A DNA stretch of 64,000 bases, taken from the NCBI RefSeq assembly GCF_016026235.1, contig NZ_CP065613.1; one strand, given 5' to 3'. The stretch is from Escherichia coli (lineage in GTDB: Bacteria > Pseudomonadota > Gammaproteobacteria > Enterobacterales > Enterobacteriaceae). The notes under the pieces were generated by a model. The model saw nothing but the letters and a program-made list of their open reading frames with translations, did not search any database and was not told the DNA's origin. The translations under genes were made by a program, and so were the position numbers. Below, in pieces: positions 57,102-57,725 of this stretch. Numbering within the stretch: the stretch's first letter is position 1; the number at the start of each line of letters is the position of its first letter.

Positions 57102-57725
57102 CTATGCGGCCTCGGAAGGAAGTCCAATCATCTTATTCAAATCTTCTACCCGTAAAGCAGGAAGTGCTGTACTTGCTTTATCTGCTTCTTTTGGTAGCAA
57201 TTCTTTGCTTTCAGGCCAAACTTCAATAAGTCGCTTAACTGTTGTGACTGAGTTCAAAGCAGCCCATACATTTGATTCGATATCCTTTTTCCTGGCTTTA
57301 AGTTTTTGTTGCAATGCGCAGATTTCATCAAACCTTTTTGTTATTTCGTGTTCTGCGCTAAACATGCATTTATCTCTGGTCGGAGTAGGGAGCAATATAT
57401 CTTCGCCGTTGCCGTCTTTCCCATATGAATACCATCCAACCCTTCTGCCAGATACAGTCAGATAAATTGAAGTAGAACGAACATCGCATGAGTAAAATGA
57501 ACATCCCATCTTTTCAAGTTCTTCACTTATAGCTACCAACTTGGATGATAACTGATCCACTTCCTCAGTTTTCTTCTTCCCGCCAAACGCAACAACTCTG
57601 GCGTCAAGTGCAAGCTGGTTCTTTAGCTTTGTTACTTCTTCAAGTTCAGTGAACACCCCGGACTTAATTAAAGCGTTGCGTGCTATTACTTCTTTTATTC
57701 TCGTTGTTAAGCGGATTGATGACAT
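57102..57725 (-). CDS. Hypothetical protein in the cIII–N interval
   Basis: ORF 57102..57785 with start at Met 57725 preceded by gagagg SD; ~207 aa; family not recognised. Confidence 0.5.
   Translation of the reverse strand: MSSIRLTTRIKEVIARNALIKSGVFTELEEVTKLKNQLALDARVVAFGGKKKTEEVDQLSSKLVAISEELEKMGCSFYSCDVRSTSIYLTVSGRRVGWYSYGKDGNGEDILLPTPTRDKCMFSAEHEITKRFDEICALQQKLKARKKDIESNVWAALNSVTTVKRLIEVWPESKELLPKEADKASTALPALRVEDLNKMIGLPSEAA

Follow-up and report, generated by a model that had tools for sequence, protein, structure and literature searches.

The open reading frame between cIII and N in an Escherichia coli lambdoid prophage is a real, conserved phage gene, and its 207-aa product is, with near certainty, a standalone full-length member of the Nmad5 family (PF18757). 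We are nearly as sure as can be that the gene is an exchangeable cassette, occupying the slot between N and cIII. Pfam, PHROGs, RefSeq and several deposited phage genomes already contain the gene, its family and its position, and the biochemical role is a question of the Nmad5 family, not of the present locus. Our joint reading, which we hold at a little less than an even chance, is that Nmad5 is a cassette of the pL operon and encodes a non-catalytic accessory protein of early phage DNA transactions. Taken as a discovery the locus carries little weight; its value is as a pointer to a widespread phage family with a doubtful functional name, and the lambdoid copy, lying in a genetically tractable operon, is a convenient place to test the role of the family and the substitution that defeats the Tmn defence.

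The Nmad5 gene and the leftward early operon

We analysed a window of 64,000 nucleotides, this being the whole stretch of DNA under study. PHROG scans showed a standard lambdoid left arm and placed the Nmad5 gene in the leftward early operon of this E. coli prophage; of the prophage, the window covers the left arm only (50.3-64 kb, 14 kb), and the right arm lies outside it. The features that we use below are these:

57102..57725, minus strand: Nmad5-family coding sequence, 207 aa plus stop (Pfam PF18757; PHROG 1965; same coding sequence in RefSeq for strain VL40; dN/dS 0.30)
57731..57738, minus strand: Shine-Dalgarno sequence GAGAGGAA, read from the sequence, with its AGGA core ending 6 nt before the ATG
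57094..57113, minus strand: terminator-like hairpin followed by a T-run, over the Nmad5 stop codon (consensus scan only)
57787..58170, minus strand: antiterminator gene N, directly upstream of the Nmad5 ORF in the same operon (PHROG 271, E 9.5e-39)
58336..58350, minus strand: boxB-like stem-loop GCGCTGACAAAGCGC, candidate nutL (read from the sequence)
58419..58447, minus strand: pL-like sigma-70 promoter, TTGACC-17-TATCTT (consensus scan)
56856..56996, minus strand: cIII, next downstream in the operon (PHROG 550, E 2e-28)
56720..56989: kil (PHROG scan)
56348..56644: gam (PHROG scan)
55557..56342: bet (PHROG scan)
54880..55560: exo (PHROG scan)
60077..60814: cI-like repressor (PHROG scan)
50297..51367: integrase (PHROG scan)
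57064..57465, plus strand: antisense shadow ORF of 133 aa, judged non-coding (no PHROG family; open run not conserved)

Read leftward from the immunity region, the order is cI-like repressor, N, Nmad5, cIII, kil, gam, bet, exo, two Ant-like genes and integrase. The initial annotation had described a single ORF of 207 aa, preceded by a Shine-Dalgarno sequence and lying between cIII and N. Both the ORF and its location hold: the ribosome-binding site, the full-length Pfam match and the dN/dS of 0.30 mark a genuine gene, and the two flanking genes are those expected. The translated product begins MSSIRLTTRIKEV and ends PSEAA. RefSeq calls the same 624-bp coding sequence in VL40, with the same start codon. 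A longer ORF beginning at a TTG (57785) was rejected, as it would run into the end of N and the homologues all begin at MSSIRLT or M-x-RLT. The protein is near neutral (pI 8.6; 33 K+R versus 30 D+E), which does not suggest a DNA mimic or a strong DNA binder.

A consensus scan found no promoter-like site between N and the Nmad5 ORF. With no promoter of its own, the gene would therefore be silent in the lysogen and expressed as a delayed-early gene after induction or infection. The anatomy of the operon suggests that N would let polymerase read on into Nmad5 from pL and nutL, the stem-loop at 58336..58350 being a candidate nutL because of its position upstream of N. The hairpin over the Nmad5 stop codon is probably a tL-type site that N-modified polymerase would read through.

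On sequence evidence, the plus-strand ORF at 57064..57465 is spurious, as the initial annotation had suspected. It has no PHROG match, and it lies antisense to the Nmad5 gene in the frame in which the third codon positions of the two ORFs fall together. In distant homologues the antisense open run varies in length and position, whereas each of the 12 that we examined has an uninterrupted sense ORF. In 16 of the 31 dereplicated loci, the shadow ORFs antisense to Nmad5 group together by BLASTP simply through being complementary to a conserved gene, and this apparent conservation is no evidence of coding.

We observed several other features in the same arm. Toward the integrase end, at 51648..53375, are two adjoining Ant-like anti-repressor genes of 207 aa and 260 aa (PHROG 377 and 1726), the second of which (PHROG 1726) has weak matches to the PADLOC candidate PDC-S05. 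The initiator gene O is interrupted by an IS, with its N-terminal part at 61721..62068 (plus strand), its C-terminal part at 63550..63924 (plus strand) and a 398-aa transposase (PHROG 2199) between them at 62063..63259 (minus strand); the prophage is therefore probably replication-defective. The slot equivalent to rexAB, between the cI-like repressor and pL (58975..60039), holds two minus-strand ORFs: one of 113 aa (59698..60039) that matches the PADLOC candidate defence family PDC-S43 (E 7e-42), and one of 177 aa (58975..59508) in PHROG 2602, a family of unknown function. This pair is likely to be defence cargo expressed in the lysogen. Upstream of pL, a minus-strand ORF of 44 aa (58667..58801) is followed by a GC-rich hairpin and T-run, AACCCGGCTTCCGCGCCGGGTTTTCTTT (window positions 58620..58801); it may be a small moron or mark the end of the immunity transcript.

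Family membership, cassette exchange and selection

The initial annotation could not place the protein in a family. That statement no longer stands: residues 4-203 match the Pfam model PF18757 from position 1 to 206 of 206 (i-Evalue 4.4e-71, 239.6 bits), the protein matches PHROG 1965, a family listed with unknown function (E 1.6e-82), and RefSeq already annotates the gene as Nmad5. The Pfam name of PF18757 is "nucleotide modification associated domain 5", and the RefSeq product name in E. coli VL40 is "Nmad5 family putative nucleotide modification protein"; the VL40 DNA is 100% identical over 790 bases and its gene encodes WP_038341315.1. Assignment to a housekeeping phage family was one of the outcomes that the initial annotation had regarded as fatal to its view of the ORF; a known family has indeed been assigned, but it is an accessory family and not a housekeeping one. 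The protein retains the conserved C-terminal residues W170, P171, E172, L196, N197, G201 and L202. Comparison with Ral and SieB, which the initial annotation had proposed, gave nothing, as no Pfam-A family other than Nmad5 scored below E 0.1; Pfam-A includes models for both. Scans of the protein against NCBIfam gave no match, PADLOC-DB defence models gave no family at E<=1, and a PDB sequence search returned nothing below E 0.4. The "NMAD" protein of a validated defence system in the DefensePredictor paper is, according to the supplement of that paper, Nmad2 (PF18753) and not Nmad5, and is irrelevant here.

With an 801-base query spanning the gene, we recovered full-length copies from about 200 of the 5,426 complete E. 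coli genomes. In the phage collection, identity is 95% to gp37 of mEp235 (AFM76255.1) and to HK542, and 93% to Stx1a-converting phages, and these copies occupy the same slot. A HMMER search of 1.84 billion representatives recovered 888 family members at E<=0.001, counted as 50%-identity representatives, and nearly all of the full-length matches listed are standalone proteins of ~200 aa. All database relatives carry PF18757, and none of 196 profile matches is fused to another domain; all are standalone proteins of ~200 aa. Homologues occur in only 6 of 72,556 plasmid records, all of them phage-sized and non-mobilizable. The family is thus essentially restricted to phages.

Comparison of related phages shows that the gene comes and goes between constant flanks. 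In mEp235 it lies between N (or Nun) and cIII, and the VL40 prophage, whose N and recombination module are of other types, likewise has it in the N-cIII slot. In many related phages the match is confined to the flanks of the region. In Stx2a_F723 the flanks are kept and Nmad5 is replaced by an ea10-like SSB and a 156-aa protein, in line with the suggestion of the initial annotation that the interval is an accessory slot holding other cargo in related phages. Comparison with the ea10 type, also proposed at that stage, revealed no kinship, the hhalign probability between Nmad5 and the ea10-like SSB of Stx2a_F723, as between Nmad5 and the 156-aa protein, being 0.2%. In at least 8 records of Stx2a-converting phages the match to Nmad5 begins only at residue 34. 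In one Stx2a phage record (LC616041.1, 238..2025) an IS3-family element, which we take to be IS629-like, abuts the truncation at about codon 34, with ORFs of 108 aa and 296 aa. The IS truncation in a Stx2a phage, together with the viable deletion in Dhillonvirus (PMC11846954), indicates that the gene is dispensable.

For 61 intact close alleles taken from IMG/VR prophages, dN/dS was 0.30, with values of 0.22-0.64 for individual segments and no sign of positive selection in any of them. In a subset of 35 alleles, variable sites were distributed 32/23/57 over the three codon positions. These patterns in the aligned alleles indicate purifying selection with no arms-race signature. The interrupted O gene and the IS-truncated Nmad5 of a Stx2a phage could be taken to mean that the gene is a decaying passenger in a defective prophage, with no function here. 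We consider this very improbable: the ORF is intact and has a ribosome-binding site, its DNA is identical to that of the VL40 gene over 790 bases, 61 distinct intact alleles share a dN/dS of 0.30, and the gene is present in the plaque-forming phages mEp235 and HK542.

Genomic context, predicted fold and the nucleotide modification label

The family was named by Iyer et al. 2013, who reportedly linked Nmad5 to nucleotide modification. We weighed the possibility that Nmad5 is a true nucleotide- or DNA-modification protein, that is, an enzyme or an obligatory subunit acting on bases or on the nucleotide pool, alone or with host enzymes. Beyond the Pfam family name and the PGAP product name, this possibility draws on a few loci. 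In M6/SN1-type phages Nmad5 lies inside a thymidine hypermodification cassette, beside aGPT-Pplase1 and a hydroxymethylase; in one N4-like phage, SP154, ThyX adjoins Nmad5; and in two metagenomic phages the neighbours are a C5-methylase and a dUTPase, or DUF4406 and an MT-A70 methylase. The family also has four conserved polar residues, described below.

We compared these loci with the wider family in a census of 169 loci, drawn from phage records, from public assemblies and from two scans of IMG/VR. Dereplication at 80% identity left 31 Nmad5 clusters, and we grouped the neighbouring ORFs by BLASTP. A cI-like repressor lies upstream of Nmad5, mostly on the same strand, in 13 of the 31 clusters, that is, the early-left operon of a temperate phage, and 22 of the 31 have recurrent replication or recombination families no more than 6 kb away; these counts have no background control and show location, not excess over chance. 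The families found in the 22 clusters are Pol A, helicase, SSB, the Enc34 ssDNA-binding protein, a VRR-NUC-like protein, O-like initiators, and RecE/YqaJ-like, DUF2800 and DEDD exonucleases. Early phage genes in general tend to neighbour replication and recombination genes. An exonuclease gene immediately adjoins Nmad5 in SP154, in Amjad_SA and in one further locus (L015). All-against-all BLASTP of the immediate neighbours in 12 contexts revealed no conserved partner protein. We also noted a recurrent early module around Nmad5 in Amjad_SA-type phages and related IMG/VR contigs (loci L007, L109, L113, L130 and L144). Its members differ from locus to locus and are drawn from a VRR-NUC-like protein, a RecE/YqaJ-like exonuclease, a ParB-like protein and a large helicase, each present in a subset of the five; in Amjad_SA itself a P-loop ATPase (PHROG 1366) follows Nmad5. 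This module is the tightest linkage between Nmad5 and recombination genes that we observed.

Among the 31 clusters, thymidine-hypermodification genes stand beside Nmad5 in the M6-type locus only. No thymidylate-synthase-like, 5-hmdU kinase or aGPT-Pplase gene was found in the 14-kb left arm of the prophage (50.3-64 kb), and in mEp235 the 4 kb inspected on each side of Nmad5 contained no hypermodification gene. Even for M6 itself, the 5-NedU pathway was rebuilt stepwise with purified enzymes gp51-gp55, and gp56, the Nmad5 protein, was neither mentioned nor assayed (PMC8989533). The "nucleotide modification" label derives from gene neighbourhood in a minority of members, and the fold and the usual context of the family suggest otherwise.

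With respect to the fold, an AlphaFold2 model built from a 119-sequence alignment had a pLDDT of 92.4 and a pTM of 0.84. The predicted helices span residues 8-22, 24-47, 50-72 and 127-158, which agrees with the helical character that the initial annotation had predicted. Residues 86-100 form a beta-hairpin, further helices toward the C-terminus are short, and residues 185-189 are flexible. Foldseek recovered 30 matches in AFDB50 at E<=0.001, with TM up to 0.96, and all of the named ones are Nmad5 or "nucleotide modification associated domain" proteins; against the PDB it found nothing better than E 0.84, and hence no solved structural relative. As modelled, the Nmad5 fold is not recognisable as an enzyme fold.

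Conservation is focused at the N-terminal helix and at a C-terminal motif, TTVK(K/R)L..WPE..ELLP...LPA..V..LN..IGLP, in which N197 is invariant across the 119 sequences. Sequence varies in the hairpin region, where the Dhillonvirus protein has a large insertion. G, P, W, L, I and A account for most of the near-invariant residues, and R43, T162, E172 and N197 are the only polar ones among them. From the alignment, these four could form a small catalytic or ligand site. A beta-clamp-binding motif (QLxLxL) was considered at LN..IGL; the C-terminal sequence fits it only in part and lies in a predicted helix, so we regard it as unsupported.

Modification is at odds with this predicted helical bundle, which has no relative among solved enzymes and no fusion to a catalytic domain, as well as with the scarcity of modification genes at Nmad5 loci and the assembly of the 5-NedU steps from gp51-gp55 with gp56 not included (PMC8989533). 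Overall, we regard a modification role as distinctly unlikely. We instead favour a non-enzymatic reading because the model is confident and mostly helical, conserved polar residues are few and domain fusions are lacking. Nmad5 would then be an accessory of replication, recombination or DNA processing, and not a base-modifying enzyme in this phage.

Tmn escape, proposed mechanism and comparison with known systems

The experimental data on the family itself come from Dhillonvirus, in which a single nmad5 substitution, K216E in PhiSMA8 or K296E in PhiSMS22, allowed escape from Tmn, and reverting the substitution restored Tmn sensitivity (PMC11846954). Deletion of nmad5 left the phage viable and still Tmn-sensitive, and cloning of the gene failed, apparently because of toxicity (PMC11846954). 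Since the deletion leaves Tmn sensitivity in place, Nmad5 is not the sole Tmn trigger. The escape lysine aligns with R165 of the lambdoid protein, which belongs to the conserved TTVK(K/R)L helix immediately N-terminal to WPE. In T2, RIIB, which is described as an early replisome-associated membrane anchor, is reported to activate Tmn directly (bioRxiv 10.64898/2026.03.01.708804). These data show that the conserved face of Nmad5 matters for an interaction that Tmn detects; the link to Tmn is indirect, and it would fit, but does not prove, a place for Nmad5 alongside the early DNA machinery.

The mechanism that we propose is as follows. Nmad5 would be a long bundle of three helices, tipped by a variable beta-hairpin, and the N-terminal helix, R43/G48 and the C-terminal motif would meet at one end of the bundle, as read from the order of the helices and not from coordinates. 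This conserved end may bind a partner common to many phage-host pairs, while the tip varies. Changes at the conserved face would alter the response of the Tmn membrane-NTPase defence to infection, and under laboratory conditions the phage could do without Nmad5. Taken alone, this mechanism, a non-catalytic accessory protein working through its conserved end, has our modest and tentative confidence. A stronger statement, that "Nmad5" is a misnomer for a new-fold, non-catalytic early protein attaching to the phage replication or recombination machinery, whose C-terminal face is sensed by Tmn-type defences in parallel to T2 RIIB, we consider doubtful; if it were true, Nmad5 would be a determinant of host-defence sensitivity in Stx1-converting and other lambdoid phages.

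The same phenotype can be read in another way. Ral, Gam, Kil and cIII all act on host proteins from the same operon, and Nmad5 might likewise be a counter-defence or host-takeover factor that binds and neutralises a host protein (an immune sensor, an effector or an essential function) and has no connection with phage DNA metabolism. Its dispensability, the other swappable cargo carried in the pL accessory slot of related phages and a predicted fold that is helical and not enzyme-like would all fit such a factor, as would the location of the Dhillonvirus copy, one of two genes in a small insert that interrupts the head genes in the opposite orientation. Toxicity on cloning, and escape from Tmn by a single substitution but not by deletion, amount to a gain of function typical of inhibitors (PMC11846954). 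Set against this, the conserved face is common to phages of Enterobacteria, Pseudomonas, Vibrio and Bordetella, to which the AFDB matches add Hymenobacter and Burkholderia; across hosts so different, a counter-defence target would therefore need to be near-universal. Per-segment dN/dS values of 0.22-0.64 carry no sign of an arms race. The family is also near-absent from plasmids (6 of 72,556), on which generic anti-restriction genes are common. We judge counter-defence unlikely and retain the accessory role in early DNA transactions as our preferred reading.

Comparison with known systems places the locus as follows. Other occupants of the N-cIII interval, namely the ea10/ral/sieB type of lambda and the pair in Stx2a_F723, share with Nmad5 the position, the operon and the cassette-like exchange, although the ea10-like SSB and the 156-aa ORF of Stx2a_F723 have no sequence or profile similarity to it. 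Gp56 of Pseudomonas phage M6 (SN1_019) belongs to the same family, with ~24% identity and the C-terminal motif kept; it lies inside the 5-NedU thymidine hypermodification cluster, whereas the lambdoid copy has no such neighbours. The Dhillonvirus proteins (PhiSMS22 CDS6 and PhiSMA8 CDS7; Yamashita et al. 2025, PMC11846954) are likewise non-essential members of the same family, with ~33% identity over the C-terminal half. They are longer (254 aa in SM_A8), with a large insertion at the hairpin region, and their setting is not a pL operon but the oppositely oriented insert among the head genes; the phage itself is virulent. Closest of all are gp37 of mEp235, the HK542 copy and WP_038341315.1 of VL40, which are the same gene, in the same N-to-cIII position and with the same predicted fold and C-terminal motif; relative to these copies, the flanking modules alone differ, in the type of N, the recombination genes and the immunity region.
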